NCBI GenBank assembly: GCA_001825155.1
Contig: MHVH01000005.1
Span: 168,501 to 232,500 of the forward strand
DNA: 64,000 bases
Direction of reading: 5' to 3'
Source of the DNA: Candidatus Zambryskibacteria bacterium RIFCSPHIGHO2_01_FULL_46_25
Lineage (GTDB): Bacteria > Patescibacteriota > Minisyncoccia > Phycocordibacterales > Zambryskibacteraceae
Below, piece by piece: positions 339 to 47,063 of the stretch; within the stretch, counting starts at the first letter, position 1; each line of letters begins with the position of its first letter. Made by a program: the position numbers and the translations under genes. The notes beneath the pieces were generated by a model, which was given only the letters and a program-made list of their open reading frames with translations, ran no database searches and was not told the DNA's origin.

Positions 339-348
339 GTAGGATAGT

Positions 349-2061: not shown

Positions 2062-2100
2062 TGCCTAACTATATCATTTATGGTCGAATTTTAATACTGG

Positions 2101-2847
2101 CTACTTCAAAAGGTCATCGAGGTAATGTTTGAATTTATAAAATGCCGGATGATCAGGGTAGACAGCATGGAACATTGTAACTTCATCCAAATCTTCGATA
2201 TCAGCATTTTCGTTTGGACCAATTAACATATATTTTTCTTTCGGGAAAATATATAATTCGCCATTTATCGAATACCTAGTCAGAGCAATTGCTAGTGCTC
2301 CCTGCTCATCATGGTGGGTTTGATTATCTTTAGATATGTTCTTTTTCCACCAATTTAATTCTTCTGACAAATCTTGAGAAATGTTATAACCTGCTTTTTG
2401 TATAAAGAGACCAGCATTTACAAAGGGAGTTTGTTTGTCAGCTTTTTGCTGCATAGCCCCATACTGCCACAGCTGACCGAAAAACTCATCCATAATACCG
2501 AACTTTGATTTCGAGTCCTTGATGAAATCGTCAATTTCTTTTGGGTATCTCAATAAAAATACATCCGAGTCAATATAGACCTCCGTTTCATTTACATCTA
2601 TTCTCGGGCTTGGACACCACTTTTTCCATGTAGCAACAGAATCAATATCATACTCACTAACGATGTTGGTAAAATCTAGCACTTCAGCAATTCCGTTGAA
2701 TTTGTTCATCCAGTCACTTGGTGAATCTGTATAGATGACATATCTGTGTTTATTACCAAATTGCTTTTTGAAAGACAAAATACTATACCTAAGTAAATCT
2801 AGGTTTTTTTCTTTATATTGACCCCATATACTCCATCTAAATATCAT
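2101..2847 (-). CDS. hypothetical protein in glycosyltransferase cluster
   Basis: 248-aa ORF, same strand, tightly packed with neighbours. Confidence 0.35.
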   Translation of the reverse strand: MIFRWSIWGQYKEKNLDLLRYSILSFKKQFGNKHRYVIYTDSPSDWMNKFNGIAEVLDFTNIVSEYDIDSVATWKKWCPSPRIDVNETEVYIDSDVFLLRYPKEIDDFIKDSKSKFGIMDEFFGQLWQYGAMQQKADKQTPFVNAGLFIQKAGYNISQDLSEELNWWKKNISKDNQTHHDEQGALAIALTRYSINGELYIFPKEKYMLIGPNENADIEDLDEVTMFHAVYPDHPAFYKFKHYLDDLLK

Positions 2848-3590
2848 TTTATTTTAGGAAAATGTTTAGGTTTCCACTGCTTTCTTTTAGTATTATTATA
2901 TTTTGAATACATTTCGAATATCTTTCTTTGATCTGGTCTTTCAATAAGCCATTTATCAATATTGGTGTAATATCCATGAAAACCAAATTGATCTTTATAG
3001 TTATCATCGCCGCCCTCGAATGCAAATCTTCTTGCTAATTCTACATCAGCGAATTCTATTCCTCTTTTTATAAAAAGATCTCTGTACCATACACTGAACG
3101 CTATGTCTTCTGGATGAAAATATGGAATCTCACTTGATTTAAATAATTCTGCCGATACTTCTAAGAATTTCCTGCTCCTTATACAAAAACCTCCATTACC
3201 AACCACTCTTCTCCCTCTCCAGTTTTCAGGAAACCCAAAATCATTAATTGACCAATCTTTTACAACCCATGGTGCACCAATATAATCATAATTTAGAAAC
3301 TCATTGGTCCAACTATTTGGGTTTAAGATGAATCCATCCCATTGAACCAGTAAAACAAATTCTGTATCAACGTAGTCTTTTAAGTCACTTAAACAGAACT
3401 GCGAATATTGCTCATGAGAAGCAATCTCTTTTATTTTAATTAATCTATGATCTTCAACATCCTTTGAAGTAAGCAGCTTGGATTTTGCAAAAGTAATTTT
3501 TTCTTCGCACAAATTCATTACTTCCTGTAGCTTAGCTGGGTCGACACAATCAATCCCTAGCAAAGTAACTTTATCTAACTTTAATTTCAT
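2844..3590 (-). CDS. hypothetical protein in glycosyltransferase cluster
   Basis: 248-aa ORF overlapping the downstream gene by 4 nt (operon-like). Confidence 0.35.
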   Translation of the reverse strand: MKLKLDKVTLLGIDCVDPAKLQEVMNLCEEKITFAKSKLLTSKDVEDHRLIKIKEIASHEQYSQFCLSDLKDYVDTEFVLLVQWDGFILNPNSWTNEFLNYDYIGAPWVVKDWSINDFGFPENWRGRRVVGNGGFCIRSRKFLEVSAELFKSSEIPYFHPEDIAFSVWYRDLFIKRGIEFADVELARRFAFEGGDDNYKDQFGFHGYYTNIDKWLIERPDQRKIFEMYSKYNNTKRKQWKPKHFPKIK

Positions 3591-3610
3591 ATAATCGGAG
3601 TGCGTATAAT

Positions 3611-4891
3611 CTATTTGAGATTCTTCACAAGAAAATCCCTCATAATTACCGGAAAATCAAATCTGCCAATCGTGTTTGTGTTTTTATCAATAATTTCTCT
3701 CTTTGTGTTCTGATCCAATTTGGCTGTGGTGATTATTTTTTGTGAAAACAGTTCGATATCATTTGGATCAACGTATACAGACTCATCCTCACTAAATGCA
3801 TCAACTGCGCCATCAACCTCACTAATTATAGTTACAAAATTCATATCTCTTGAAAACAACTTGGCCTCAATTGAGGTGTGTGGGAATGGATCCATTATTG
3901 ATGGTATACATACAATATCTGTATTTTCATTTCTTAATACGGTTTTCCATATATCTGGATTGAAATCATCAATGATGATAGATCTAGGTGTATCTGAAAG
4001 AATGCTTCGGACTTCGGAGAAGTAATTCGATTCACCAGAATTATTTGGCATTTGTAAAATAAGATAGTGATTTGGCAACTGTTGAGCCGACATTTTCCAT
4101 GCCTGAGCAAGCTCTCTGAAACCTTTAGCGACCGAGCACCTTCCCCAAGAAAAAATAATCTTTGCATCTCGTTCGATATTTATATCAAATTTTTCTAAAT
4201 CAGAGTTTGTAAATTTCCTGCTAAGATAGTTGTCGTATCTACTAAAAAATAATCCATTTTGAAGAAAATCATCTTTTGAGAAAAATAATCCATAATCATT
4301 ATGCATTCTCTCAGCGAACTTTTTTCCTAAAGAAATGACCTTCGAGTCTTTATCTTTGAAGGCTAGGTCAAAACACTCTTGCTCAACCCTAATTCTATTT
4401 TCTCTCCAAACCTGATCTCCAAAAGCATGATTTTTGCCAGTACTTAATGGGAAATAAAAATACTTAACTTTTTTGCTGTTAACCAAATCTTTATATTTAG
4501 CAAAGAATAAAAAGGGAGTGTCATTTAAAATGATATAACTCTCCTCATCAGGGTTTAGAATAATATTTAGAGCAGTAACAAGGGAGGAGCATGTGTAATT
4601 CCATTCATTAAAACTTCTCCACATATCCCACTCACTTTCTCCTTTGGTCGAATTACATAGTGGCAACATGGCGCCTCCAGTTTCTGAAGTAAGTTTATTT
4701 GCCTTATCAAAACACTCTTTGTTAAACACTTTTGAACCCTGGTCTACATTGATATAAGCAATACTTACCTTCAAATCGAACTCATCAGCAAGTTCACCTA
4801 AAGCATCCACAAAATTTTTTGCAATTGTTCCAACTCCAGAATAATGCGTACCTATGCCGTCATATGTAGCTATAATTAGATGTTTCTTCAT
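3611..4891 (-). CDS. putative glycosyltransferase (GT1/GT4-like) / hypothetical
   Basis: 426-aa ORF; N-terminus IIATYDGIGTHYSGVGTIAKNF resembles the Rossmann-like start of GT-B enzymes. Confidence 0.4.
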   Translation of the reverse strand: MKKHLIIATYDGIGTHYSGVGTIAKNFVDALGELADEFDLKVSIAYINVDQGSKVFNKECFDKANKLTSETGGAMLPLCNSTKGESEWDMWRSFNEWNYTCSSLVTALNIILNPDEESYIILNDTPFLFFAKYKDLVNSKKVKYFYFPLSTGKNHAFGDQVWRENRIRVEQECFDLAFKDKDSKVISLGKKFAERMHNDYGLFFSKDDFLQNGLFFSRYDNYLSRKFTNSDLEKFDINIERDAKIIFSWGRCSVAKGFRELAQAWKMSAQQLPNHYLILQMPNNSGESNYFSEVRSILSDTPRSIIIDDFNPDIWKTVLRNENTDIVCIPSIMDPFPHTSIEAKLFSRDMNFVTIISEVDGAVDAFSEDESVYVDPNDIELFSQKIITTAKLDQNTKREIIDKNTNTIGRFDFPVIMRDFLVKNLK

Positions 4892-10998: not shown

Positions 10999-11208
10999 AT
11001 GAAAAAGCAGTTGACGAGCATCTTTGCGCTGTCTCTCTTCTCCCTGACCTTTCCTCTCGTGTTGATTTGCGCATTTTTCTACGGCGCAATGTGGGGGAAT
11101 TTCACGTTCAACTACGACGAGGAGAGGGGGCGAGAAGCGATCCAGAATCTGTTTCTCAACCCTTGCGGGAAGATCATTTCCTGGGGTTGGGATAAGGTCG
11201 CAGCGTAA
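10999..11208 (+). CDS. small hydrophobic hypothetical protein
   Basis: 69-aa ORF with strong RBS AGAGGAGGGG 6 nt upstream; N-terminal hydrophobic segment. Confidence 0.4.
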   Translation: MKKQLTSIFALSLFSLTFPLVLICAFFYGAMWGNFTFNYDEERGREAIQNLFLNPCGKIISWGWDKVAA

Positions 11209-11230
11209 TCCATTGCTCCGCCAATCTCAC

Positions 11231-11260
11231 CGCCGGCGCGCACGCGCCGGCGGCTTTCAT
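11231..11260 (+). terminator. GC-rich hairpin, probable rho-independent terminator
   Basis: CGCCGGCGCG-cac-GCGCCGGCGG followed by CTTTCATT. Confidence 0.4.
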
Positions 11261-11303
11261 TACAAATTTTAACAAACCTTCCACTCTAACTGAACCTCTC
11301 CCC

Positions 11304-11337
11304 CCATTATTTTCCAGCTATAGCGTAGAAATAATGG
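11304..11337. repeat. quasi-palindromic ~34-bp repeat, copy 1 (partner 11908-11941), just downstream of the PaaX-like gene
   Basis: CCATTATTTTCCAGCTATAGCGTAGAAATAATGG versus CCATTATTTTCTAGCTATAGCTTAATTATAATGG; direct repeats, each with palindromic ends CCATTAT/ATAATGG and core AGCTATAGC. Confidence 0.85.
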
Positions 11338-11344
11338 GGATGAC

Positions 11345-11911
11345 TTATATAAGGTCGAAATCCATTCTTAAATATTTATCATTCTCTATTTGATCAGCGA
11401 TGATGTAGAGCATATTCTTCCCTATCCCATAATTGGTCTTGAGGAGTCCGATGACATCTTCGCAATCATAAGGATAAACCCAGACGCTGTCCTGTAGTCT
11501 TAAAAAACCCGACGATTTGAGTATCTCCCTCACCTCGTCTCTCACTTTCTTCATCTTTTCCGGAATATCGAAAATTATGATCCTCCATTTTCTATCCCAT
11601 CTTTTTGGCTTAGGAATTCTATAATCATCCATTTCCCATTGGCGAAGAACCTTTTCTCCATCCGTTGTGAGAAAATATTTCCCACTTTTAAATTCCACCA
11701 ATCCTTTCCTTCTCAGGCGCGAAACCGCGGAGTATATAATATCTTTCTTTCTAGAAGATATTGGAATATCCAGATCAAGAAAATAATTCAGAACACTCGG
11801 CAAAAGGTCCGAGGAGCCCCTTCTGCCTCCAGAAGCTATCGAGACAAGAATCGCCTCCTGAACTTTCGATTTATTTATGGACTTCCTGGCTTTTCTTTCT
11901 AGCTCTCCCAT
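11345..11911 (-). CDS. PaaX-family regulator-like protein (N-terminal wHTH plus C-terminal Cas2-like/PaaX_C domain), paralog 1
   Basis: WRIIIFDIPEKMKKVRDEVREILKSSGFLRLQDSVWVYP matches the PaaX C-domain / Cas2-like pattern; 60-70% identical in the C-terminal half to ORF 22404-22976. Confidence 0.7.
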   Translation of the reverse strand: MGELERKARKSINKSKVQEAILVSIASGGRRGSSDLLPSVLNYFLDLDIPISSRKKDIIYSAVSRLRRKGLVEFKSGKYFLTTDGEKVLRQWEMDDYRIPKPKRWDRKWRIIIFDIPEKMKKVRDEVREILKSSGFLRLQDSVWVYPYDCEDVIGLLKTNYGIGKNMLYIIADQIENDKYLRMDFDLI

Positions 11912-11941
11912 TATTTTCTAGCTATAGCTTAATTATAATGG
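11908..11941. repeat. quasi-palindromic repeat, copy 2, overlapping the start codon and promoter region of the PaaX-like gene
   Basis: See 11304-11337. Confidence 0.85.
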
Positions 11942-11990
11942 AAATATGATATTTTGAAAATTTAGGAAAGAAAGACACTTGACTTCCAGT

Positions 11991-14171
11991 TTATTTCGCC
12001 ACTTCCACCGCCTCATCGAATGATATGGAAAGGAGTTTGGAGATGCCATTGCCGGACATGGTGACGCCGTAGATAACGCCAGCGCGGCTCATAGTCTCGC
12101 GGTTGTGGGTTATGAGAATTAGTTGCGACTTCTCGCTAAGCAACTCCACCAAATCGCCGTACTTCTTGGAATTGGACTCATCGAGAGCGGCATCGGTCTC
12201 ATCGAGAATGATAAAAGGCGGTGGATTGACTTGCGAGATGGCAAAGATTAAGGCGATTGAAGTAAGCGCTCTTTCACCACCAGAGAGCATCATGAGATTG
12301 CGAATCTTCTTCTTCGGCAAGGAAACTTTTATATCCAACCCCTCTTCAACTTTTTCACCTTCCTCACCTTCTTCAACTGGCAACTCGTTCTTCACAAGAG
12401 TGAGATGCGCTTCCCCGCCGCCGAACATGGAGGTAAAGAGTTTGTCGAATTTCTCATTGATATTTTGGAGCCCGGTTTTGAATTCTGTCGCGAGTCTGTC
12501 TTCCAAGTCTTTTATCAAGCCGTTGAGAGATTCGGCCGACTTCTCAAGGTCGAGAAGCTCGCGCGCCAAGAAAGCGTCTCGCTCGGAAGTTTCGAGATGT
12601 TCCTTCTTCACCTCCTCAGCGCCAGCTATACTTGAGTCCTCTAGTCGTATCTTCAATCTCCCCAAAGTTCGCTTCCTCTCTTCTTGATTTACCCTGCCCT
12701 CTTCCTTGGAGAATTCCAAACCTCCATACTTCAAAACATCTCCGCCCGCCAGATGTCCAATTTCCGTAAGCTCGCGCTTGAATTCGGTTTCTTCAAGACC
12801 CACCTTCTCCTCACGCGCCTTGAGCAGACTGAGTTTCGAGCGAATACTGTTCTCCTCCGACATAATGCGGAAGACTGCTATCTGGGCAGAGCTGTCAGAA
12901 TCCTTGGCTCGCTCAACCTCCTTCTTGAGCGTCTCGTAATCTGCTTGGAGTTTCTTCTCCTTCTCTTCGGCATCCTTCTGCTTCCGCTCTACCCCCAATT
13001 TCTCTTCTCTCAGTTCTTCAATATACTTCTTGGCTTCTTCGATAATATTCGAAGCAACTGTTTCCCGTCTTTCCTTCAAGAAATTTAGAAACTTGGCTTT
13101 GATTCTCTCTAGAATCCCGGGTGCGTCCTTCTCAATCTCGATTTCTTTATAAAGCGCCTCAACATCTTTGAGCGGGATAACTTTGTGCTCATTGGAAGCG
13201 GCAAGCTCTTGCTGTTTTCTCACAATGCTCGACTGAGCATCCATCAAGCCCTCCACCCTGCCAAGCTCCCTGCTGGAAGCATCTTTGATAGCGCGAGATG
13301 CCGATAGTTCTTTCTCCAACTCGAGGATGAGATACTCCTTCTTCTCCTGCGAGCCTTGCTCCGCAAGAACTTCTTTCGCCTCCGCCAATTCTTTCTCCAA
13401 CTTCGCAAGCGAAGCACTGAGTGGCTTGCGTTCCTCTTCTATCTCTTTCTTCGCCGACGTGATATAGGAATCCTCCCGTTTGAAGTACTCAAGAGCGAGC
13501 TTCACAAGGTCTTCTCGCAGACCCTCTGTCTTGGCAAGCTTCTCCACTTGCTTCTCGAGGAAGCGCAAGTGCGGCGCAATCTCTTTTCGCAGAGCCTTAA
13601 CTTGTGCCACGTTTTCGAAAGTTTTCTTGAGCTTACGCTCACTCTCAGCTTTCTTGTATTGATAGAGCTTGAGGCCCAAAGCATCCTCGACCATTGCTTT
13701 TCTATCCTTGGGATTGGCACTCACTACCTTGTCCGCTTCGCCCTGTGAAATGATGTGGTGACCAGAAGCACCTATGTGAGCACCCGCTAGAAGCTCGATA
13801 ATATCCTTCAATCTCATCTGTGAACCGTTGATGAGATATTCGTTGAGCCCATCGCGATGCACAACACGCTCTATGGAAACTTCCGGAAAATCTATGTCGA
13901 AAATTTTTCTGGAATTGTCGAAGGTTACTTTGACCGAAGCCCTGTTCGCTCTTGGTTCGGAAGTGGCACCATTCCAGATAAGGTCCTCACCCTTCTTGCC
14001 ACGCATGCTCTTGATAGACTGCTCACCCAAAACGAAGCGGAAGGCCTCCGCCACATTGCTCTTGCCTGAGCCGTTAGGCCCCACAATGGAGGAAATAGGG
14101 GTATTGAATTCAAAAACATTCTTTTTCGCAAAAGATTTAAACCCCGATAGTTCTATCGATTTTAGATACAT
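11991..14171 (-). CDS. smc: SMC-family chromosome segregation ATPase (short form)
   Basis: Walker A GPNGSGKSN, long coiled coil, signature LSGGERALTSIAL, Walker B FIILDETDAALD. Confidence 0.75.
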   Translation of the reverse strand: MYLKSIELSGFKSFAKKNVFEFNTPISSIVGPNGSGKSNVAEAFRFVLGEQSIKSMRGKKGEDLIWNGATSEPRANRASVKVTFDNSRKIFDIDFPEVSIERVVHRDGLNEYLINGSQMRLKDIIELLAGAHIGASGHHIISQGEADKVVSANPKDRKAMVEDALGLKLYQYKKAESERKLKKTFENVAQVKALRKEIAPHLRFLEKQVEKLAKTEGLREDLVKLALEYFKREDSYITSAKKEIEEERKPLSASLAKLEKELAEAKEVLAEQGSQEKKEYLILELEKELSASRAIKDASSRELGRVEGLMDAQSSIVRKQQELAASNEHKVIPLKDVEALYKEIEIEKDAPGILERIKAKFLNFLKERRETVASNIIEEAKKYIEELREEKLGVERKQKDAEEKEKKLQADYETLKKEVERAKDSDSSAQIAVFRIMSEENSIRSKLSLLKAREEKVGLEETEFKRELTEIGHLAGGDVLKYGGLEFSKEEGRVNQEERKRTLGRLKIRLEDSSIAGAEEVKKEHLETSERDAFLARELLDLEKSAESLNGLIKDLEDRLATEFKTGLQNINEKFDKLFTSMFGGGEAHLTLVKNELPVEEGEEGEKVEEGLDIKVSLPKKKIRNLMMLSGGERALTSIALIFAISQVNPPPFIILDETDAALDESNSKKYGDLVELLSEKSQLILITHNRETMSRAGVIYGVTMSGNGISKLLSISFDEAVEVAK

Positions 14172-14189
14172 CTAGTACAGTTTATCAAA

Positions 14190-14891
14190 TTATTTCCAGC
14201 CTTTCTTTTCTAGAGCATCACGAGCGGCCTCTTGTTCTGCATCTTGCTTCGACTTCCCTTCTCCCTCGCCGTAAACCTCTCTACCGACGGAGACAGAGAC
14301 GGTGAAATGCTTGTCATGGTCTGGTCCGGATTCCCTGACTGTTTTATATGCAGGAGTTAATCCCATTAACTCCTGTGCCTTCTCTTGAAAAAGAGATTTT
14401 GCGTCTATCCAAGTACCGTCTGAGACAATTTCTTCCATAAGCGGAGCAATGTGTTTGAGTATAAAATCTTTTGCCGCTTCGTAATCTCGGTCTATGTAAA
14501 TCGCGCCAATGAGCGCCTCAAGCGTATTCGCCAGAATATAGGTACGGGCGCGACCGATATCTTTGCCTTCCCCCCGGGAAAGCAAAAGGAAATCATTTAC
14601 CCCCAGCGCTTGCGCCACCTTCGCGCAAGTCTCCGCATTGACGAGAGCGGAACGAAGAGCGGTCATCTCCCCTTCGCTAGCCTCTTTCATCCTGCCGAAG
14701 AGATAGTTGGTAATAACAAGCTCAAGGACCGCATCGCCGAGGAACTCCAGGCGCTCATTATGAGCAAGGCCGGATCCGCCAGCTGGCGGACGGTTCTCGT
14801 TTATATATGAGCGGTGAGTGAAGGCCTGTTTGAGCAGGCTTTTGTCCTTGAACATGATTCCCGCTGTTTCTTCAAATTTGTTGAAATCCAT
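14190..14891 (-). CDS. rnc: ribonuclease III
   Basis: RNase III signature ERLEFLGDAVLELVI; C-terminal dsRBD; conserved rnc-smc neighbourhood. Confidence 0.9.
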   Translation of the reverse strand: MDFNKFEETAGIMFKDKSLLKQAFTHRSYINENRPPAGGSGLAHNERLEFLGDAVLELVITNYLFGRMKEASEGEMTALRSALVNAETCAKVAQALGVNDFLLLSRGEGKDIGRARTYILANTLEALIGAIYIDRDYEAAKDFILKHIAPLMEEIVSDGTWIDAKSLFQEKAQELMGLTPAYKTVRESGPDHDKHFTVSVSVGREVYGEGEGKSKQDAEQEAARDALEKKGWK

Positions 14892-14892
14892 T

Positions 14893-15804
14893 TTACTTGC
14901 CCTCAGCGAGCTTCGTTATCGCCTTGGTCACGATAGGCAGAATATCATCATAAAAGTTTAGGTCAAGGATGTCCGCCAGTTTGAACCATCTCACGTCATC
15001 GAGTCCGCCCTTCTCCTCCTTCTTCTCGAGAGTCAATTCCATAAACGGCGCTTCGGCCATATAGTAATTAATTTCTTTCATCATCTTGCCTTTTTCCGGA
15101 TGGAAGGTGGAGTAGGAGTTGCTGCCAATATTTTCCTTGACCTCAATCGGGACACCTAGTTCTAATGGCACCTTGCGGCGTAAACATTCAACATCGCTTT
15201 CACCTTCATTTAGACGACCTTTCGTAAGTGTCCAGTGACCGAACACATCATGCACAAGCGCCACATAAACTTCCCCTTCATGCCTGGCAAATACAGCCGC
15301 GCCGGCAAGTTTCTCTACGGGCAACTGGTCTAGAGGCACGTTGCCGAATTTTTTCTTTGGCTTCGGCTGGTCGTTTTTCCCCGGTTCGCCCATCTCCTTG
15401 TATACCGCGCCGAGAACACCGTTAATGAATCTGCCGGAAGTCTCTCCGCCGAACTGCTTGGCAAGCTCTATAGCCTCGTTGATAGCCACCTTGGGCGGAA
15501 CTTCTTTTCTATCGGCGAAAAGAAGTTCCGCCAGCCCTATCCTCAAAATATTCCTATCGACCGGCGCGATCTTCTCCAGAGGCCAGTCCGGAGCCGCTTT
15601 GGCTATGAGATTGTCGAGGTCCTTCTGCTTATCTAAAACAAGATTAAGAAGCCGTTCCATGAAAGGCCGGTCGTTACTGCCCGGCGCGAACTCGGTAATA
15701 TTTTTCTCAAAAATCGTCCTAATCTCCTCGATGCTGCGTTTCTCAAAATCCCACTCAAAAAGTGTTTGCAAAACTATCGAACGAGACAGATGTCGTTGTG
15801 ACAT
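14893..15804 (-). CDS. nusB: NusB antitermination factor fused to a C-terminal Nudix-like hydrolase domain
   Basis: N-terminal NusB motifs (RNILRIGLAELLF, GETSGRFINGVLG); C-terminal GHWTLTKGRLNEGESDVECLRRKVPLELG is a Nudix-box-like motif. Confidence 0.7.
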   Translation of the reverse strand: MSQRHLSRSIVLQTLFEWDFEKRSIEEIRTIFEKNITEFAPGSNDRPFMERLLNLVLDKQKDLDNLIAKAAPDWPLEKIAPVDRNILRIGLAELLFADRKEVPPKVAINEAIELAKQFGGETSGRFINGVLGAVYKEMGEPGKNDQPKPKKKFGNVPLDQLPVEKLAGAAVFARHEGEVYVALVHDVFGHWTLTKGRLNEGESDVECLRRKVPLELGVPIEVKENIGSNSYSTFHPEKGKMMKEINYYMAEAPFMELTLEKKEEKGGLDDVRWFKLADILDLNFYDDILPIVTKAITKLAEGK

Positions 15805-15835
15805 AAAGAACTAAAGAGCTTATGTTTATATAAAT

Positions 15836-16057
15836 TTAACGCGCGTTTTCCGCTTCCTTCGTCTTCTTGGCTCGCTTCTCGATCTTGGCGGAGAGATTGA
15901 CCACCTTCCTGCCGCGATACGTGCCGGTAGCCGGAGACATCCTGTGGCGCAAGTGCGTATTGCCCTGCTCGTCTTTCGACAAAGCCGGGTTCTTGAGCCT
16001 ATGGTGAGAGCGCCGACTGTTCGTCTGCGACCTCGTATGTCTCATTCGGACTACCAT
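15836..16057 (-). CDS. rpmF: 50S ribosomal protein L32
   Basis: MRHTRSQTNSRRSHHRLK...HLRHR...YRGRKV is typical of bL32. Confidence 0.75.
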   Translation of the reverse strand: MVVRMRHTRSQTNSRRSHHRLKNPALSKDEQGNTHLRHRMSPATGTYRGRKVVNLSAKIEKRAKKTKEAENAR

Positions 16058-16144
16058 GACTCTACATTAGCATAAATATGGCAAAAAGAAAGGACCCGGC
16101 AGCTACAGCCGCCGGGCCACTCATGAGACTGTGGTTCGAGAGTT

Positions 16145-16603
16145 TTATACTGTCACTCCCCGTGCTCGAAGGGTCTCTACCGCCGCACGATATGCCCAGA
16201 ACTGAACTGGGGCGATCATGCTGCGCAGACGTCTTACCGACACCCAACGTGGCGCCGACATCTCGTCCCCTTGAGCCTCTAGTGGTCTCGTATGCAATTC
16301 GCCGAGACAGTCGCTCAAAGATATGAGGAAGGCGTACTTGATGTGGTGGGTTCCCTTCTTCGCAATCTCTTCCGTGTCGACTGCCAGAAGCCCTGTTTCT
16401 TCCTGGAGCTTCCGGACACTCGTCTCTTCACTCGATTCCCCGAACTCACCGGACCCGCTGGTGCCGGTCGGGAATCGAACTTCCCACCTGCTTTTTTTGC
16501 CTGTGTCAGGATCCGTTGAACGATAATCATGAACGAGCATCTCGAGCTCGTTATCAGAATTAACGCGCCAGACCACATTACAGGCAGAGTGTGTCATGAG
16601 CAT
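16145..16603 (-). CDS. Nudix hydrolase
   Basis: Nudix box GSGEFGESSEETSVRKLQEETGL; locally GC-rich, with spurious overlapping ORFs on the other strand. Confidence 0.55.
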   Translation of the reverse strand: MLMTHSACNVVWRVNSDNELEMLVHDYRSTDPDTGKKSRWEVRFPTGTSGSGEFGESSEETSVRKLQEETGLLAVDTEEIAKKGTHHIKYAFLISLSDCLGELHTRPLEAQGDEMSAPRWVSVRRLRSMIAPVQFWAYRAAVETLRARGVTV

Positions 16604-16642
16604 CGCTCCACCCTATTCCTTTCTACTTCTTACTATACTACC

Positions 16643-17233
16643 TTACGGTGTAAATGTCAATCTCTTTGTAAAGCTCCTCCTATGTAGCTCTGTTAAGCCA
16701 TATTTTTTGATAGCTTTCCGATGAACCAACGTGCCGTAACCTTTATGCAAATCGAAGCGGTATTTGGGATATTTTTTAGAAAATTTGACCATCTTTCTAT
16801 CGCGAATCACCTTGGCGCAAATTGAAGCGAGGGAAATTATGGGAATTTTCTCATCCCCTCTTATGACCGTGAGCTGGTGCTTGAATTCCGGCGGAGCCTT
16901 GAGTGCACCGTCGAGGAATATCTGAGAATCTTGAGTAATTCCCAAACCCTTCAAAACTCTTTTGATACCGAGGCGAATGGCGTAAGCGATGCCATGCTTG
17001 TCTATAATCTTTTCCGAAATGAGAGAGACGTGGAAATCGAGTTCACCCCTCTTTCTTGCTTCTTGCGCTAAAGCAAACCACAGTTCCCTTTCTTCCGCTG
17101 TAAGCTGTTTGGAATCTTTTATTCCCTTGAAAAATTTTTTATTAAACTTTTCCGGAATCCTTACCGCCCCGACTGCCACCGGCCCGGCCAAGGGTCCCCT
17201 CCCCGCTTCATCTATGCCTACGATATGACTCAT
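16643..17233 (-). CDS. rnhB: ribonuclease HII
   Basis: MSHIVGIDEAGRGPLAGPVAVGAV is the canonical RNase HII N-terminus. Confidence 0.9.
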   Translation of the reverse strand: MSHIVGIDEAGRGPLAGPVAVGAVRIPEKFNKKFFKGIKDSKQLTAEERELWFALAQEARKRGELDFHVSLISEKIIDKHGIAYAIRLGIKRVLKGLGITQDSQIFLDGALKAPPEFKHQLTVIRGDEKIPIISLASICAKVIRDRKMVKFSKKYPKYRFDLHKGYGTLVHRKAIKKYGLTELHRRSFTKRLTFTP

Positions 17234-17252
17234 TCGTTCTCTGTATTATACT

Positions 17253-20200
17253 ATGCCCATCACGATGTCGAAATCTTCCCCTTTCACCCATTTACACACC
17301 CACTCCCATTACTCCCTTTTGGAAGCATTGCCTAAGATTCCGGACCTGGTCAAGAAGGCGAAGAAATGCGGCATGGAATCACTCGCGCTCACCGATTCCG
17401 GCAATCTCTATGGCGCTATCGAGTTCTACAAAGAATGCAAAGAGAATGGCATTAAGCCCATTATCGGCGTCGATTTCTATGTCGCTCTCCGCACCCGCCA
17501 TGATAAAGAAGCTCGTATAGACAACCAGAGAAGCCGCTTGGTACTCTTGGCCGAGAACGAAACGGGTTATAAAAATCTTTTGAAACTCGTGTCAGCTTCA
17601 TACCTCGAAGGCTTCTACTACAAGCCGAGAATCGACCGAGAATTGCTCGAGAGATACAATGAAGGGCTCATCGCCATAGCGAAGGAAGACCTGCCTGCCG
17701 GCAGGCAGGGAAATAATTATAAAGAAATATTTAAAAATAATTTTTTCTTGGAAAGCGAGCTTGCCATATACGACGTTTATTATCTTGAGCCGGAAGACCG
17801 CCCGGCGTTCGAAACGGTAAAGTCGATCCAGGAATTCATAAACCGCGGCAGTTTCGGCGAGGAGGAAGACCTGCACTTTCGAACCCGAGACGAAACCAAG
17901 AAGGATTACAAAACAAACCCGGAAAAACTTTCCAAGACTGTAGAAATCGCCGAGAGATGCAACCTGATTCTGGAGCTGGGCAAGTGGGTATTCCCGAATT
18001 ATGTGACAAAACCGGGCAAATCTTATGACGAGGAACTGCGCGACCTTGTATATGAGGGGTTGAAGAAAAAAAGCATTGAGGAAACGCCGGCGATAGTCGA
18101 GCGCATAGAGTACGAATTGAAGGTCATAAGAAGCAAGGGTTATTCGCCATACTTCCTCGTTACCGCGGACCTCTTGCGCTACGCGCACGGTCACAAAATA
18201 CTCACCAATACCAGAGGCTCGGCGGCAGGCTCGATGGTTACCTATCTTGCCGGCATTACGACTGTTGACCCTATAAAATTCGCCTTGCCCTTCGAGCGAT
18301 TTCTGAACCCAGACCGCCCCTCTCCTCCAGATATAGACCTCGACATAGCGGACAATCGCCGCGACGAGCTCATCCAGTACGCAAGAGACAAATACGGCGT
18401 CAACCATGTAGCGCAGATCGGCACCTTCGGCACCATGATGGCGCGCGGCGCGGTACGCGACGTGACCAGAGCTATGGGATTGCCTTACAGTCTGGGCGAC
18501 CAGATTGCCAAGCTGATACCTCTCGGCGCGCAAGGCTTCCCTATGACTATAGACCGCGCCATGAAGGAAAATCCCGACCTCAGAAAACTCTACGAAGAGG
18601 GCGGCGAAGCAAAAACCGTTATGGATATGGCCAGAAAGATTGAGGGCAATGCCCGGCACATCTCGGTTCACGCTGCGGGCGTCGTTATCGCCCCCTCCGA
18701 CCTCACCGACTACACCGCGCTCCAGTACGATACTAAGGGTGAGCAGAAAATTATCACTCAGTACGACATGTATTCCATCGAGGAAGCGGGGCTTCTCAAG
18801 TTCGACTTCCTCGGCATCAGAAATCTTGCCACCATCGCGGAAACCTTCGTGCGCTTGGAGAAAATCGAGGGAAAGATTATCAAGCTCGAAGACATCCCAA
18901 TCGATGACAAGAAGACCTACGAGATGCTCGCCCGAGGCGAGACCGAAGGCACTTTTCAGCTCAACGGCTCAGGTATGACCAAAGCTCTCATGGATTTGAA
19001 GCCGACGGTTATCCACGACATTAATGTCATGGTAGCCCTCTACCGCCCCGGTCCAATGGACAACATTCAGGAATATATAGCGAGGAAAAACGGCAAGAAG
19101 CCGATTACATATCTCCATCCGAAGATGAAGACCTTCCTCGACACGACCTACGGCGTGCTGGTCTATCAAGACGATCTTCTCATGACCGCAATAGAAGTGG
19201 CCGGATACACTTGGGGCGAAGTGGACAAGTTCCGCAAGGCTGTCGGCAAGAAGATCCCGGAGGAGATGAAGAAGCAACACGTCATGTTCGTCGAGGGCTG
19301 CCAGAAGCACGGCGGTATGACGGAAGAGAAAGCCGAGGCGCTCTGGCAACTCTTTGTGCCATTCCAGGGATACGGCTTCAACAAGGCGCACGCAGCGAGC
19401 TACGGACATATCGCCTACGTGACGGCGTATCTCAAGGCGAACTTCCCGGAAATTTATATGAGCGCCGTACTCACGGCGGAATCCGGCGATGTGGATACTA
19501 TTGGCGTCATGGTGAACGAATGCAAACGCATGGGCATAGATGTCTTACCGCCTTCGATAAACGAGAGTTTCTCGCAGTTTTCGGTAATCAAAGCCGACAT
19601 AGGCCTTGCCTATGGGTCTCCACAGGCAAGGCCTATGTACAAAATTCGCTTTGGTCTCACGACCATCAAGAACTTCGGACAAGGCATTTCTTCAAGTATT
19701 ACCGCCGAGCGAAAGGTGAATGGCAAATTCAAAAGCCTGGCCGACTTCCTCGACCGAGTGAAGGACAAGAATTTGAACAAAAAATCGCTTGAGGCTCTCA
19801 TCAAGTCTGGCGCTCTCGATGAGTTCGGCGAGAGAGGAGAACTCTTCGCGAATCTAGAAAACTTACTCGCCTATCATAAGGAGCAGCTGAATTCTTCTGA
19901 TAATCAAAATTCGCTTTTCGGACTTATGGAAGACTCTACGAGTCTTCCATCACTTCGACTTCGCCCGGGGCAACCGGTTTCTCAGAAAGAGAAACTCTTT
20001 TGGGAGAAAGACCTTCTGGGGCTCTACATCTCCGGCCATCCTCTGGAAGAGCACCGCCAGAAATTAGTTGATAAAAAGATGGATATATCGAAGCTTGTCG
20101 ACGCTCCAGAAGGAGCCGAGAAAGTCATCGCCGGCATGGTTGAGGAGGCGCGTGACGTCCTGACGAAAAATAACGAGCGCATGGTATTCATGAAGCTCTC

Positions 20201-20357
20201 TGATTTTACCGGCTCGATAGAGGTGGCGGTTTTCCCGCGAGTGCTGACCGAATTTCGCCAGTTCGTAGAGCCGGAAGCTTGCATCGCCATCAAGGGCAGA
20301 ATCTCGAAGCGCAACGGCATCACCTCCTTCGTTGCCGACAAGATTAAAGCCTTGTAG
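17253..20357 (+). CDS. dnaE: DNA polymerase III alpha subunit
   Basis: PHP domain HLHTHSHYSLLEA; polymerase core; 1034 aa. Confidence 0.9.
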   Translation: MPITMSKSSPFTHLHTHSHYSLLEALPKIPDLVKKAKKCGMESLALTDSGNLYGAIEFYKECKENGIKPIIGVDFYVALRTRHDKEARIDNQRSRLVLLAENETGYKNLLKLVSASYLEGFYYKPRIDRELLERYNEGLIAIAKEDLPAGRQGNNYKEIFKNNFFLESELAIYDVYYLEPEDRPAFETVKSIQEFINRGSFGEEEDLHFRTRDETKKDYKTNPEKLSKTVEIAERCNLILELGKWVFPNYVTKPGKSYDEELRDLVYEGLKKKSIEETPAIVERIEYELKVIRSKGYSPYFLVTADLLRYAHGHKILTNTRGSAAGSMVTYLAGITTVDPIKFALPFERFLNPDRPSPPDIDLDIADNRRDELIQYARDKYGVNHVAQIGTFGTMMARGAVRDVTRAMGLPYSLGDQIAKLIPLGAQGFPMTIDRAMKENPDLRKLYEEGGEAKTVMDMARKIEGNARHISVHAAGVVIAPSDLTDYTALQYDTKGEQKIITQYDMYSIEEAGLLKFDFLGIRNLATIAETFVRLEKIEGKIIKLEDIPIDDKKTYEMLARGETEGTFQLNGSGMTKALMDLKPTVIHDINVMVALYRPGPMDNIQEYIARKNGKKPITYLHPKMKTFLDTTYGVLVYQDDLLMTAIEVAGYTWGEVDKFRKAVGKKIPEEMKKQHVMFVEGCQKHGGMTEEKAEALWQLFVPFQGYGFNKAHAASYGHIAYVTAYLKANFPEIYMSAVLTAESGDVDTIGVMVNECKRMGIDVLPPSINESFSQFSVIKADIGLAYGSPQARPMYKIRFGLTTIKNFGQGISSSITAERKVNGKFKSLADFLDRVKDKNLNKKSLEALIKSGALDEFGERGELFANLENLLAYHKEQLNSSDNQNSLFGLMEDSTSLPSLRLRPGQPVSQKEKLFWEKDLLGLYISGHPLEEHRQKLVDKKMDISKLVDAPEGAEKVIAGMVEEARDVLTKNNERMVFMKLSDFTGSIEVAVFPRVLTEFRQFVEPEACIAIKGRISKRNGITSFVADKIKAL

Positions 20358-20366
20358 GATGTAGTT

Positions 20367-22088
20367 ATGAGTAAAATTGAGGAAAAAAGGCATTCTCTCG
20401 CCCATCTTCTGGCGGCGGCGGTTTTGGAACTATACCCCGGGACCAAGAACACTATTGGCCCGTCTATAGACAACGGCTTCTATTACGATTTCGAATTCCC
20501 CTCTCCTATAAGTGACACAAACCTCAAGGAAATTGAGAAGAAGATGAAGAAACTTTCGAATTCCTGGAAGAGTTTTGAGAAAAAGGATGTTTCCGCAGAG
20601 GAAGCTCGAGAACATTTCAAAGATAATCCATACAAGCTCGAACTAATCGGGGAAATTATTTCTAAGGGAGAACCTCTGACTCTATACACTTCAGGCAGCT
20701 TCACCGATCTTTGTCGTGGCGGGCACGTCGAAGATATGCGGGAAGTGGACAACGACGCTTGGAAGCTTTCCCACATTGCCGGTGCCTACTGGCGCGGCAA
20801 TGAGAAGAACAAAATGCTCACCCGCATTTATGGCTTGGCTTTCGATACGAAAGAAGAATTGGATACGTATGAGAAAATGATTGAAGAAGCCAAAAGGAGA
20901 GATCATAGAAAACTGGGGGCGGAACTCAACCTGTTTTCAGTAGATGACCGTCTAGGTCAAGGTCTTATATTATGGCACCCGAAGGGCGGCATCATCCGTA
21001 AAGAAATCGAGGATTATGAGAGAGAGCTTGTCTTGAAACATGGATATGATTTAGTCTATACACCACACATTGCTAGCGAGAAACTCTTCATTGAATCTGG
21101 ACATTTGGAAAATTACATCGACAGCATGTACGGCTCAATAGAGATTGAAGGGGAAAAATATCGACTCAAGCCAATGAATTGCCCTGGGCATATTTGCATT
21201 TACCAGGCACGGGTGCATTCCTATCGTGATTTGCCATTGCGCTTCGCTGAATTCGGTACGGTTTACCGCTATGAACTAAGCGGTACGCTCCAAGGCCTCT
21301 TGCGTGTACGCGGATTTACACAAGATGATGCTCACATCTTCTGCACACCGGAACAAGTAGAAAATGAGGTTAAGGAACTGCTCTCTTTGGTTGACGAAAT
21401 GCTCAAGACTTTTCGCTACCCTTACTCTATCGAGCTTTCAACAAAGCCTGAAAAGGCCATGGGTTCAAAAGAAACCTGGGACAAAGCGGAACAGTTACTC
21501 AAATCAGTTTTGGAAAAGGAGGGCAAGGAATACACCGTCGACGCTGGAGGAGGTGCTTTCTACGGGCCAAAATTGGACTTCAAGCTCATTGATTCTCTCG
21601 GACGAAAATGGCAGGGTCCAACTGTCCAACTTGATTTCAACTTGCCGGAAAGATTTAAGATGGAATATATCGGATCGGATGGAAAAGCTCATAGGCCAGT
21701 AATGCTACACCGAGTATTAGTAGGCTCAATGGAGCGATTCTTCGGTGGTCTTATCGAGCACTACGCCGGTGCATTCCCTCTCTGGCTCTCCCCGGTACAG
21801 GTTAAGGTTTTACCTATCGGCGAGGGACACTTCGCTTACGCGACAGAAGTTCTGGACAAGATGAAAACCGCTGGCATTCGCGCCGAACTCGACGTCTCCG
21901 ACGAAACTCTGGGCAAGAAGATTCGCAACGTGAAGACCGAAAAAATTCCTTACGCTCTGGTCATCGGCGACAAAGAGGTGGCGGACAAAAAAGTGACTGT
22001 CGAGAGCCGCGACCGAGACAATGAAGGAGTACAAGAAGTCGAAACGCTGATTGAAAAGTTGAAAACAGAAATCAAAGAGAAAAAATAA
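20367..22088 (+). CDS. thrS: threonine--tRNA ligase
   Basis: Class II core (HRKLGAELNLF, FRYELSGTLQGLLRVRGFTQDDAHIF), anticodon-binding C-terminus. Confidence 0.9.
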   Translation: MSKIEEKRHSLAHLLAAAVLELYPGTKNTIGPSIDNGFYYDFEFPSPISDTNLKEIEKKMKKLSNSWKSFEKKDVSAEEAREHFKDNPYKLELIGEIISKGEPLTLYTSGSFTDLCRGGHVEDMREVDNDAWKLSHIAGAYWRGNEKNKMLTRIYGLAFDTKEELDTYEKMIEEAKRRDHRKLGAELNLFSVDDRLGQGLILWHPKGGIIRKEIEDYERELVLKHGYDLVYTPHIASEKLFIESGHLENYIDSMYGSIEIEGEKYRLKPMNCPGHICIYQARVHSYRDLPLRFAEFGTVYRYELSGTLQGLLRVRGFTQDDAHIFCTPEQVENEVKELLSLVDEMLKTFRYPYSIELSTKPEKAMGSKETWDKAEQLLKSVLEKEGKEYTVDAGGGAFYGPKLDFKLIDSLGRKWQGPTVQLDFNLPERFKMEYIGSDGKAHRPVMLHRVLVGSMERFFGGLIEHYAGAFPLWLSPVQVKVLPIGEGHFAYATEVLDKMKTAGIRAELDVSDETLGKKIRNVKTEKIPYALVIGDKEVADKKVTVESRDRDNEGVQEVETLIEKLKTEIKEKK

Positions 22089-22096
22089 AACGATGA

Positions 22097-22130
22097 GGGC
22101 GGTCCGGCTACTAAGCCGGACCGCCCTTTG
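22097..22130. terminator. bidirectional rho-independent terminator
   Basis: GGGCGGTCCGGCTactaAGCCGGACCGCCC followed by TTTG; preceded by an A-run on the other side. Confidence 0.6.
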
Positions 22131-22137
22131 CGCTGCT

Positions 22138-22335
22138 TTACATGTGAAGAATCCTCTCGACGACGCTCGAGACGTCGAAGCCCGTGCCCGGGCTCAGAAA
22201 TTCGACCACGAGTAACGCCACGACCGCCCCCAGAAATCCCACGGCGGTGTAAGCTGCGATATCTTCCGCCCTATCCCAAACCATATGCTGCCTCCAATCC
22301 TCTTTAACTATACACCCAAATTTATAAAAAGTCAA
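22138..22335 (-). CDS. small hypothetical membrane protein
   Basis: 65-aa ORF with one hydrophobic helix; weak support. Confidence 0.25.
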   Translation of the reverse strand: MTFYKFGCIVKEDWRQHMVWDRAEDIAAYTAVGFLGAVVALLVVEFLSPGTGFDVSSVVERILHM

Positions 22336-22346
22336 GTTGTTCTCTT

Positions 22347-22380
22347 ACACAATAACCCTACGACCGTTTGCTTATTGTGT
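22347..22380. repeat. quasi-palindromic repeat upstream of PaaX-like paralog 2 (partner 22976-23012)
   Basis: ACACAATAACCCTACGACCGTTTGCTTATTGTGT versus ACACATAATAAGCTTACGACCGTTGGCTTATTATGTG; direct repeats with inverted ends. Confidence 0.8.
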
Positions 22381-22403
22381 AGTAAGATGTAAATTAAAGA
22401 AAA

Positions 22404-22976
22404 ATGGGAAAGCTAGAAGAAATCAGTAAGAAAAATACCCGAAAGACGAGAATCCACGAAACTCTCCTTCTTGCGCTAGTCTCGGGCGGAAGAAGGGGTG
22501 GAGATATACTGATAAGGCAAGTGGTTGATTCACTTCTTAAAACCGACTTCTCCCTCACTTCCCCACGCATAAGCGACACAGTGAAGTCTGCTGCGCAACG
22601 CTTGAGCCGGAGAGGTTTAATAGCATTCGAGGACGGACATTACTCACCCACCGTAAGCGGGAAGAAACTATTGGCAAAATGGCAGAGAACAAATTATAAA
22701 ATCAAAATCCCGAAAAAATGGGACAAGAAGTGGCGGGTGATCATTTTTGACATACCTGAGAAGAAACGGAAAATCCGCGATCACATCAGAGAAATACTTA
22801 TTGCCACCGGGTTCATTCGGTTACAGGACAGCGTATGGGTATACCCATATGACTGTGAGGATGTAATCGGGCTTATAAAAACAGAACTGCGAATCGGTCG
22901 GTATCTTTTGTATATGATCGTCGACCAGATCGAGGACGACCGGTTCCTACGAATGGATTTCGACCTCATTCGCTAA
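22404..22976 (+). CDS. PaaX-family regulator-like protein (wHTH plus Cas2-like C-domain), paralog 2
   Basis: WRVIIFDIPEKKRKIRDHIREILIATGFIRLQDSVWVYPYDCEDVIGL; paralog of 11345-11911. Confidence 0.7.
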   Translation: MGKLEEISKKNTRKTRIHETLLLALVSGGRRGGDILIRQVVDSLLKTDFSLTSPRISDTVKSAAQRLSRRGLIAFEDGHYSPTVSGKKLLAKWQRTNYKIKIPKKWDKKWRVIIFDIPEKKRKIRDHIREILIATGFIRLQDSVWVYPYDCEDVIGLIKTELRIGRYLLYMIVDQIEDDRFLRMDFDLIR

Positions 22977-23012
22977 CACATAATAAGCTTACGACCGTTG
23001 GCTTATTATGTG
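22976..23012. repeat. quasi-palindromic repeat immediately downstream of the PaaX-like paralog 2 stop codon
   Basis: See 22347-22380. Confidence 0.8.
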
Positions 23013-23063
23013 GATGAGGTTTAAAAAATAATTACATATATAATTACGTAATTAAATATGTGG

Positions 23064-23104
23064 AAAGGGCGAAGCCACCGAAGTGACTCCGCCCTTTTGT
23101 CTTG
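23064..23104. terminator. hairpin plus T-tract, probable bidirectional terminator
   Basis: AAAGGGCGaagccaccgaagtgactcCGCCCTTTTGTCTTGTT. Confidence 0.5.
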
Positions 23105-23116
23105 TTGCCGACGCCA

Positions 23117-23482
23117 TCAGCGGTCGGCGGGAACGATCTTGATGGGAACGCCCCTCGCCGTGACGACACCCGCCTTGATCTCGCTGGAGCATCCTCGCTC
23201 CGAGCTCACGTTCCCCGCTGAGGTCGTGTAGCAAGGATTGAGCGCGCGTTCCAAGTGCTCGGGTTTGAGTCCAGGAACATCAAGTTCATACCAGCTGCGG
23301 GCGTTAACGGCAACCCACCCCGCTTCCTGCCACTGGGCAACCTCGACCTTGAGCGCGACGTTCTCCTGCTTGAGTGCCTTACTCTCAGTCTCCGCTTGAT
23401 CAGCCTTGTACGCTGCCCAGGAAGCGGTTACACACACGACCAGGAACACGACCAACAACGTATTGAATTCGTTTTTTCTCAT
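23117..23482 (-). CDS. hypothetical secreted/membrane-anchored protein with coiled-coil segment
   Basis: N-terminal hydrophobic anchor LLVVFLVVCVTASWAAY, then a coiled-coil-like KALKQENVALKVEVAQWQ. Confidence 0.45.
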   Translation of the reverse strand: MRKNEFNTLLVVFLVVCVTASWAAYKADQAETESKALKQENVALKVEVAQWQEAGWVAVNARSWYELDVPGLKPEHLERALNPCYTTSAGNVSSERGCSSEIKAGVVTARGVPIKIVPADR

Positions 23483-46974: not shown

Positions 46975-47063
46975 CCTTCATACATCGATTTTCTGCTATA
47001 GCCTGAGATAGATGTATACGTTATCTTTTCGCTGCAGCGAAATTATAACGTATGTGCAAATTT

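Follow-up and report, generated by a model that had tools for sequence, protein, structure and literature searches.

A palindrome-flanked cassette for a small PaaX-type protein with a Cas2-like domain in Patescibacteria, and its proposed autoregulation

Introduction

RAYT/REPIN systems are vertically inherited single genes with co-evolving flanking palindromes, and their products carry a small ferredoxin-like domain of catalytic type; Xer dif/pdif modules and integron cassettes are small units bounded by short palindromic sites, with precise gain and loss and with solo sites. The best fold match to the protein reported here is PaaX, which in Escherichia coli binds the operator TGATTC-N27-GAATCA and represses its own promoter, Px, by steric hindrance (PMC9493321). 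We describe a gene at positions 22404-22976 of a 64,000-nucleotide (nt) stretch from Candidatus Zambryskibacteria bacterium RIFCSPHIGHO2_01_FULL_46_25 (contig MHVH01000005.1, positions 168,501 to 232,500; hereafter the window), which encodes a PaaX-like protein without the effector domain and lies between two palindromes of about 36 bp. Identical proteins encoded near the gene likewise assign the window to a Zambryskibacteria metagenome-assembled genome from groundwater (GCA_001823795.1 or GCA_001824055.1). We hold with moderate confidence that this protein is an effector-less PaaX-type dimer that binds its two flanking palindromes and represses its own gene, and that site, gene and site together form an accessory cassette.

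Results

Two paralogous genes, each between its own pair of palindromes

The two genes of this kind in the window and the sites that flank them are listed here, a slash marking the center of a site.

22404..22976, plus strand: mini-PaaX gene, 190 amino acids (aa), winged helix plus Cas2-like domain (PaaX_M), effector domain absent.
11345..11911, minus strand: paralog gene, 188 aa, same architecture, 53% identical.
22346..22381, no strand: 5' site of the 22404 gene, TACACAATAACCCTACGA/CCGTTTGCTTATTGTGTA, with outer boxes, a loose spacer and a CGA/CCG core; 22 nt before the ATG.
22977..23012, no strand: 3' site of the 22404 gene, CACATAATAAGCTTACGA/CCGTTGGCTTATTATGTG, abutting the stop codon (TAA).
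11907..11942, no strand: 5' site of the paralog, overlapping the ATG and containing the TATAAT -10 element of a predicted promoter.
11303..11338, no strand: 3' site of the paralog.

The two proteins align from end to end (E 9e-78) and both contain PaaX_M, confirming the shared two-domain architecture that an earlier note on this DNA had proposed from the letters; tblastn found no third paralog in the window. The repeats of the 22404 gene (22347-22380 and 22978-23011) are 34-nt direct repeats with 85% identity, each of which is also a quasi-palindrome, the upstream copy ending 23 nt short of the ATG and the downstream copy beginning 1 nt past the TAA, and those of the paralog (11303-11337 and 11907-11941) are 86% identical to each other and differ in sequence from the first pair. 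When the window was searched with a degenerate pattern of either repeat, allowing three mismatches, the only matches were the repeat's own two copies, with 0 matches expected in shuffled sequence, so that each paralog does have a different cognate pair, as the note had stated. A scan with the architecture of family sites returned six sites in the window against ~0.05 expected, and four of the six flank the two genes.

A PaaX-type fold with Cas2-like motifs

Both window proteins matched Pfam PaaX_M (PF20803, the central Cas2-like domain) far above its cutoff of 24, with 73.5 bits for the target (residues 104-174) and 74.1 bits for the paralog, and both gave weak matches to winged-helix families in the N-terminal half. 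Neither had a Pfam match to the PaaX C-terminal domain, the target ending at residue 190, and the PaaX equivalog model TIGR02277 (NCBIfam) scored the target at 38.3 bits, below its threshold of 264.55. The AlphaFold2 (AF2) model (predicted local distance difference test score 83.8) has helices at residues 3-28, 33-47 and 56-69, a beta-hairpin wing at 73-82 and then a beta-alpha-beta-beta-alpha-beta ferredoxin-like domain. The best Foldseek matches in the Protein Data Bank (PDB) were E. coli PaaX (8a39; E 1.8e-4 over 185 columns) and Rv0674, followed by Cas2 proteins and VapD for the C-domain, among them type II-A Cas2 and VapD HP0315. In searches of PDB sequences the full-length protein returned a chance match only and the C-domain alone returned none; a family profile reached PaaX 8a39 and Rv0674. 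Two parts of the protein are referred to below.

22566..22610, plus strand: predicted recognition helix of the winged helix-turn-helix (wHTH), codons 55-69; residues 55, 58, 59 and 62 covary with outer-box bases.
22713..22973, plus strand: Cas2-like beta-alpha-beta-beta-alpha-beta domain, codons 104-190, with the invariant Asp116 in FDIPE and an LQDSVW motif.

Across 112 family members, D116, R125, Q141, S143 and P148 are invariant and W106, D107, W110, R111, F115, I117, E119, R129, C151, K159, Y170, E177 and D179 nearly so, and the mean share of differing positions is 58% in the N-domain and 37% in the C-domain. In a profile alignment the FDIPE and LQDSVW motifs are kept in the family and missing in E. 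coli PaaX and Rv0674; judged by sequence, the family C-domain is closer to Cas2 in its motifs than PaaX is. The Asp of FDIPE we take, by sequence motif alone, to be the equivalent of the metal-binding residue of Cas2.

Many homologs are named 'CRISPR-associated endonuclease Cas2' in NCBI annotation, others 'DNA-binding transcriptional regulator PaaX' (JGI). That the protein is a genuine CRISPR Cas2, as the former records have it, agrees with its score against TIGR01573 cas2, which at 30.5 bits passes the cutoff of 24.5, the match being a partial one to model positions 3-39 of 96. However, Pfam CRISPR_Cas2 reached 22.3 bits, under its cutoff of 23.8 and well below the PaaX_M score, the protein joins this domain to a winged helix, and genomes carry several copies, each with its own flanking sites. 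No CRISPR-like array or array-like tandem repeat was found in the window, and neither paa nor cas genes were found among the annotated neighbors of either window cassette. When all open reading frames (ORFs) within 3 kb of cassettes were clustered (80 loci), no cas1 and no recurrent partner gene appeared. Genomic context thus effectively refutes a CRISPR identity, the probability of which we consider vanishingly small, and the non-CRISPR Cas2-like fold suspected in the note is borne out by the AF2 model and its Foldseek matches. The other case that the note had considered, a standard PaaX regulator beside a catabolic operon, finds no paa operon nearby. The names Cas2 and PaaX are both misleading for this family.

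A large family that shares a three-zone site

In a word-indexed search, clusters at 90% identity yielded 1,768 proteins, nearly all of ~190 aa and, where taxonomy was given, from Zambryskibacteria, Parcubacteria or Patescibacteria. An exhaustive HMMER scan gave 3,321 representatives at 50% identity with E<=1e-3 and 1,509 with E<=1e-10, and species-representative genomes hold at least 592 family loci. The family thus has thousands of members, several per genome, and does not consist of the two window copies alone, a case that had been raised as counting against the idea.

We compared the 110 nt on each side of the ORF in 80 fetched homolog loci from Parcubacteria-type genomes. Scores of the best repeat between the 5' and 3' flanks had a median of 24, and 51/79 loci lay above the 99th percentile of mismatched locus pairs (19.5). 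When loci were centered on the best palindrome, about 70 of the 80 showed the layout palindrome-gene-palindrome. In 39/70 loci the center of the 5' site lies exactly 17 nt upstream of the ATG, so that the site ends ...ACGTATG, and the center of the 3' site lies 18-105 nt past the stop codon (70 loci). The logo pooled from 280 half-sites has three zones: an outer box from -18 to -11 with the consensus T-A-C-R-T-T-A-W, whose arms are 82-99% complementary; a spacer from -10 to -5 with low information and a complementarity of 54-74%; and a core from -4 to -1, with C at -3 in 280/280 half-sites, T or G at -2 and A (78%) or G (21%) at -1. The central dinucleotide is AT, AC or GT. An invariant domain found beside an invariant core base suggests that a Cas2-like dimer may contact the core of the site.

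Palindromes of this size could also act as nucleic-acid hairpins, either as terminators, as RNA-processing signals or as single-stranded DNA (ssDNA) hairpins of the IS200/REP kind. As ssDNA, three window sites fold better than shuffled controls (z -3.0, -6.2 and -4.1; the fourth, -1.5), the 3' site of a cassette is slightly more palindromic than its 5' partner (40 loci vs 17, p 0.048), and the invariant C/G could close a tetraloop. However, since complementarity falls in the spacer, folding energies as ssDNA are weak (-5 to -10 kcal/mol), 59/70 3' sites have no T-rich tail (present at 11/70 only) and G:T is not clearly favored over A:C, we interpret the palindrome as a protein-binding site with three contact zones and not as a selected hairpin. 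No Rfam match was found in 11000-23400 of the window at E<=0.1, and the outer boxes covary with recognition-helix residues, as described below; a hairpin function therefore appears remote.

Residues of the recognition helix covary with the outer boxes

Paralogs within an assembly nearly always differ in their outer boxes, one assembly having five different ones. A third paralog, P0070 (L161, 3946-4617), is 59% identical to the 22404 protein, has sites of the form TACATAATAA..CGCTA/TAGCG... and probably sits in the same genome as the window; because the outer boxes of P0070 are almost the same as those of the 22404 gene, cross-talk between the two proteins is possible.

Mantel tests, meant to assign the specificity for the outer box to the N-domain, were uninformative (r with site distance of 0.46 and 0.47 for the N- and C-domains alike), and mutual information between single columns of the protein alignment and positions of the consensus half-site was calculated instead. 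The protein positions with the highest values were 59, 58, 62 and 55, all on one face of the predicted helix 56-69. Tyr59 occurs with G-15 in 23/23 cases; Ile, Val or Thr at 59 is found only with A at -15, and Ser at 59 with A in 10/12. In addition, Arg58 pairs with G at -16/-17 and Arg62 with C at -14. On a crude tree built from the C-domain only, the Tyr59 state changes at least six times with the association to G-15 unbroken. Because residues 55, 58, 59 and 62 covary with bases of the outer box, proteins and sites are best understood as cognate pairs, in agreement with the specific protein-repeat pairs proposed in the note.

The 5' site overlaps a -10-like hexamer

The predicted promoter of the paralog, TTTTCA-17-TATAAT, has its -10 element inside the 5' site, and the family logo reads TTATAAT on average at -14..-8. 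Because the 5' site overlaps a -10-like hexamer and, in most members, the ATG as well, autorepression is the likeliest mechanism. In the mechanism that we propose, the protein would sit as a dimer on the two 36-bp palindromes around its own gene, its only evident targets, with each recognition helix (residues ~55-66) reading one variable outer box (-18..-11 and +11..+18). The Cas2-like domains would dimerize over the conserved core C-K-R/Y-M-G, a placement that is itself conjectural. With the 5' site occupied, the promoter of the gene would be shut, as Px is by PaaX, and the 3' site may be a second operator that acts as a roadblock or as the partner in a loop. Control by two sites could insulate the gene from neighboring housekeeping operons and keep its level low and constant.

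The same proteins might instead be ordinary trans-acting factors with a distant regulon, the flanking sites being autoregulatory operators and orphan sites the targets. The window contains one candidate of this type.

46981..47052, no strand: two abutting orphan family-type sites, classes TACATCGAT... and TACGTTATC..., between the convergent rpsA and CYTH genes.

The pair has two different arm classes and no PaaX-like or family ORF alongside, its second site runs into TG to give GTATG, and it is fixed in the population (23 contigs). L010, L014, L018 and L079 have additional cognate sites at a distance of 1.5-3 kb that bracket other genes; the genes enclosed by the third site are obg-gatB in L010 and, in L079, those for two secreted or membrane proteins. 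Such sites, together with the strong purifying selection on the gene (see below), are what a regulator of distant genes would lead one to expect. However, orphan sites are rare (16 in 594 kb, several of them false positives), the window pair lies between convergent gene ends and not at a promoter, neither a functional theme nor a conserved neighbor is seen, and the systematic presence of a 3' site right after the stop codon would be left unexplained. We therefore regard this explanation as highly unlikely. The orphan pair itself probably consists of relics left as solo sites, or else of targets for paralogs whose genes lie elsewhere; tracing it through homologs of the neighboring CYTH gene gave no indication of its origin, since relatives show no conserved synteny there.

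Cassettes are gained and lost as units and otherwise held in place

The turnover of the cassette was followed in 80 metagenome loci anchored on the aminoacyl-tRNA synthetase (aaRS) gene. The slot is empty in L083, L087 and L088, where aaRS and thrS abut, and in L081 and L082 a solo cognate palindrome is present and the gene absent. L179-L181 carry the full cassette between flanks 96-98% identical to those of L081/L082. Since the 37-nt solo site of L082 aligns to both sites of L179, the difference between these two loci amounts to exactly the gene and a single site. The window and L081 are homologous on the aaRS side as far as the palindrome and across it, but no farther. L098 (3372-3440) has a family-type 5' site followed by ATGGGACAAAAA... 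(ATGGGACAAAAAATT...) and then by unrelated GC-rich DNA, so that this locus is a truncated relic. L086 was examined as a different cassette in the same slot and rejected, as the adjacent ORF is not a family member.

Direct repeats lying 0-85 nt outside the sites were found in 10/68 loci; their length is 17-35 nt (in L034, 144 nt) and their identity 80-100%, and each scores at or above the maximum of 300 mismatched controls. The repeat is the thrS 3' end in L003 and part of tRNA-Leu in L065, and in L012 and L040 it includes terminator-like sequence. In L034 the direct repeat (2860-3003 and 3667-3810, 95% identical) includes a copy of the 3' site, giving a locus with three cognate sites, and encloses the 5' site and gene, an arrangement that resembles a recent duplication or an integration junction. 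The L065 cassette lies between an intact tRNA-Leu(CAG) (1177-1259) and a degenerate partial copy (~2140-2220), with a further cognate site at 1021 on the far side of the tRNA.

Spacers of the two sites of a cassette have an identity of 0.70 in direct and 0.64 in inverted orientation, compared with 0.40 for unrelated pairs. The core hexamer is common to both sites in 49/70 loci and is the reverse complement in 7, and orthologs differ in core type. Since spacer and core are shared within a cassette while orthologs differ in core, the two sites appear to evolve in concert.

The cassettes occupy housekeeping operons (for example rpsL-rpsG-fusA, gatB-obg, pgk and thrS), mostly at the 3' ends of genes. 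Of 74 loci, 33 have convergent host genes on the two sides of the cassette, 36 co-directional and 5 divergent ones, and the upstream neighbor runs in the direction of the cassette in 57/74. The GC content of the cassette gene is below that of its flanks in 74/81 loci (0.394 vs 0.444). Orthologs in L001-L005, with 70-72% identity, keep the slot between dnaE-thrS and aaRS-greA-PBP (PBP, penicillin-binding protein). The cassette is present in 24/24 contigs with an identical aaRS, and five fetched copies show 100% identity along 1,031 nt. In a comparison with the L179 ortholog, which is 85% identical, the nonsynonymous distance (dN) is 0.091, vs 0.144 for greA and 0.218 for PBP, with the synonymous distance (dS) saturated. 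Purifying selection on the cassette gene is strong, and the gene is fixed in the population that it comes from. The identical P0070 protein was found in 23 contigs, in one context throughout. Because the slot is conserved and identical copies occur in a single context, there is no sign of active transposition. We propose that a cassette would insert mostly at the 3' ends of genes, then pass vertically from generation to generation for long periods while purifying selection maintains it, and could be lost by recombination between its two sites, leaving a solo site.

These observations bear directly on a minimal mobile element, in which an active Cas2-like nuclease or strand-transferase would cut the core, excise the cassette and re-insert it, and with which autorepression may coexist. 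The invariant Asp116 and the retention of FDIPE...R...LQDSVW, missing in aligned PaaX-type proteins, point in this direction, as do the TIGR01573 score above cutoff, the precise site-to-site indel between near-identical strains, the outer direct repeats with their duplicated thrS 3' end and tRNA-Leu, the low GC of the gene, the several copies per genome, and a central AC/GT that is flipped between sites in 7/23 asymmetric cases. On the other hand, identical proteins occur in one context only (23 contigs for P0070, 24 for the target locus), no genome has two near-identical copies, the window paralogs being as far apart as 53% identity, and orthologs with as little as 70% protein identity still share their synteny. 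Neither the length of the outer repeats nor their distance to the sites is constant, unlike in the footprint of a transposase, and a deletion between 36-bp direct repeats requires no dedicated enzyme. Searches of Pfam, NCBIfam and PADLOC detected no transposase or recombinase domain, the matches being to PaaX_M, Cas2 and wHTH only, and the 22404 protein had no Pfam match to Y1_Tnp; no relative turned up when the family alignment was run against the viral contigs of IMG/VR, so that there is no indication of a viral origin. We judge a mobile element to be unlikely, while allowing it a real chance.

A second explanation that touches on gain and loss is an addiction or defense module, in which a latent Cas2/VapD-like toxin (RNase or DNase) would be held in check by autorepression and/or sequestration on the sites, and freed by loss of the cassette or by infection. 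The C-domain resembles Cas2 and VapD, HP0315 being among the fold matches, the cassettes are patchily distributed and occur in several copies whose specificities are orthogonal within a genome, and a location between genes at 3' ends, with acquisition and erosion, recalls chromosomal toxin-antitoxin loci. Yet a single ORF lies between the sites, with no partner antitoxin and no conserved neighbor, PADLOC gives generic Cas2 matches only, and a clean loss persists as a solo site in a natural strain. Such a module seems to us very unlikely. Overall, the data support autoregulation together with gain and loss of the cassette as a unit, and do not separate addiction from mobilization.

Surroundings of the two window cassettes

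The gene order at the target is thrS (+), a 49-aa ORF (-), the cassette (+), a 121-aa ORF (-), the class II aaRS (-), greA (-) and PBP (-), and the paralog cassette lies between the genes for RNase R (+) and smc (-). The two paralogs point outward around smc, rnc, nusB-NUDIX, rpmF, NUDIX, rnhB, dnaE and thrS. The note had stressed the bracketing of this 10.5-kb block; some relatives lack the cassette on the thrS side, pairs in other genomes have other spacings and orientations, and we found no evidence that the arrangement is meaningful. At the target cassette, no inversion or deletion was seen in the population (24 contigs).

The 49-aa hydrophobic ORF (22138-22335, minus strand) has an ATG at 22287, a GGAGG Shine-Dalgarno sequence and a TTGACT-17-TATAGT promoter; it is wedged between thrS and the 5' site of the cassette and is missing in the close relatives L081 and L179. 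Within the block, a single 303-aa ORF (14893-15804, minus strand) encodes NusB with a NUDIX domain joined to its C-terminus, and a separate NUDIX gene lies at 16145-16603. Farther away, a 220-aa ORF (50189-50851, minus strand), whose counterpart in contigs of identical context has Pfam Y1_Tnp (IS200/RAYT-type transposase), lies in a low-GC stretch (GC 0.36-0.42). The regions 1-4800 and 56800-58400 are also low in GC (0.31-0.38 vs ~0.50 elsewhere) and may be foreign or accessory DNA.

Discussion

We favor an effector-less PaaX-type protein that represses its own gene from a pair of cognate flanking sites. Binding and autoregulation are its well-supported parts, and the role given to the 3' site is more tentative. 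Several points weigh against it. The upstream region of the 22404 copy showed no consensus sigma-70 promoter. The covariation between protein and site is partly confounded by phylogeny, and the Mantel r was similar for the N- and C-domains. The spacers shared by the two sites of a cassette point to recombination or gene conversion between the sites and not mere co-selection. The retained Cas2 Asp and Q-SV motifs hint at a role beyond dimerization. Finally, the output of the system is missing from this interpretation, since a protein aimed solely at the flanks of its own gene has no obvious benefit for the cell and is yet strongly conserved.

A bolder form of the mobile-element idea is that the cassettes are one-gene selfish or mobile elements of Patescibacteria, in which a re-programmable winged helix aims a catalytic Cas2-like domain at the repeats and the core is cut and joined; we consider this quite unlikely. 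If the cassettes were mobile elements, a non-CRISPR relative of Cas2 that recognizes repeats would bear on the origin of the Cas2 adaptation subunit and would provide a compact, programmable scaffold for site-specific DNA binding or cutting. The family is a natural and very large set of matched helix-site pairs (>1,500 clusters at 50% identity with E<=1e-10), ideal for working out a recognition code of winged helices, of which the Tyr59/G-15 rule is already visible. A conserved, self-flanked cassette would be either a new kind of selfish element or an insulator of chromosome or transcription in tiny genomes poor in regulators, and either outcome would be informative. Because many family members carry the Cas2 name, CRISPR counts in genomes of the candidate phyla radiation are inflated.

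A literature search, in which journals were partly covered, returned no description of this family. The loss of the effector domain, the retention of Cas2 motifs and the site-gene-site cassette of matched specificity are apparently undescribed, as are multi-copy orthogonal paralogs and precise gain and loss at the sites; fold and operator geometry are of the known PaaX kind.

Compared with PaaX (E. coli W, 8a39; Jannaschia, 3l09; Rv0674, 3kfw), the cassette protein shares the N-terminal winged helix followed by a Cas2-like dimerization domain, a widely spaced inverted-repeat operator (TGATTC-N27-GAATCA in PaaX, outer boxes ~29 bp apart in the cassette) and, as proposed here, autorepression by occlusion of its own promoter (PMC9493321). 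In contrast to PaaX, it has no C-terminal effector (phenylacetyl-CoA) domain of ~100 aa, belongs to a multi-copy family with orthogonal specificities, has a second site past the stop codon and no paa or catabolic genes nearby, and has retained the Asp and the Q-SV motif of Cas2, both absent from E. coli PaaX and Rv0674. With Cas2 and VapD it shares the ferredoxin-like domain, the family pattern xxFDI...R...LQxSVW resembling YDI...R...vQxSVF of Cas2; unlike them, it carries this domain fused to a DNA-binding domain, has no cas1, array or antitoxin, and is accompanied by ~36-bp palindromes that flank the gene and not, as in Cas2 arrays, spacers.

In contrast to RAYT/REPIN, the cassette protein has no HUH/Tyr Y1 domain, and its palindromes are not dispersed in tens to hundreds; they form a flanking pair with rare orphans. 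In contrast to Xer dif/pdif modules, no tyrosine recombinase is evident for the cassettes, and their sites, built of outer boxes and a 6-bp core instead of the 11-6-11 arrangement, match the encoded protein and not a recombinase of the host.

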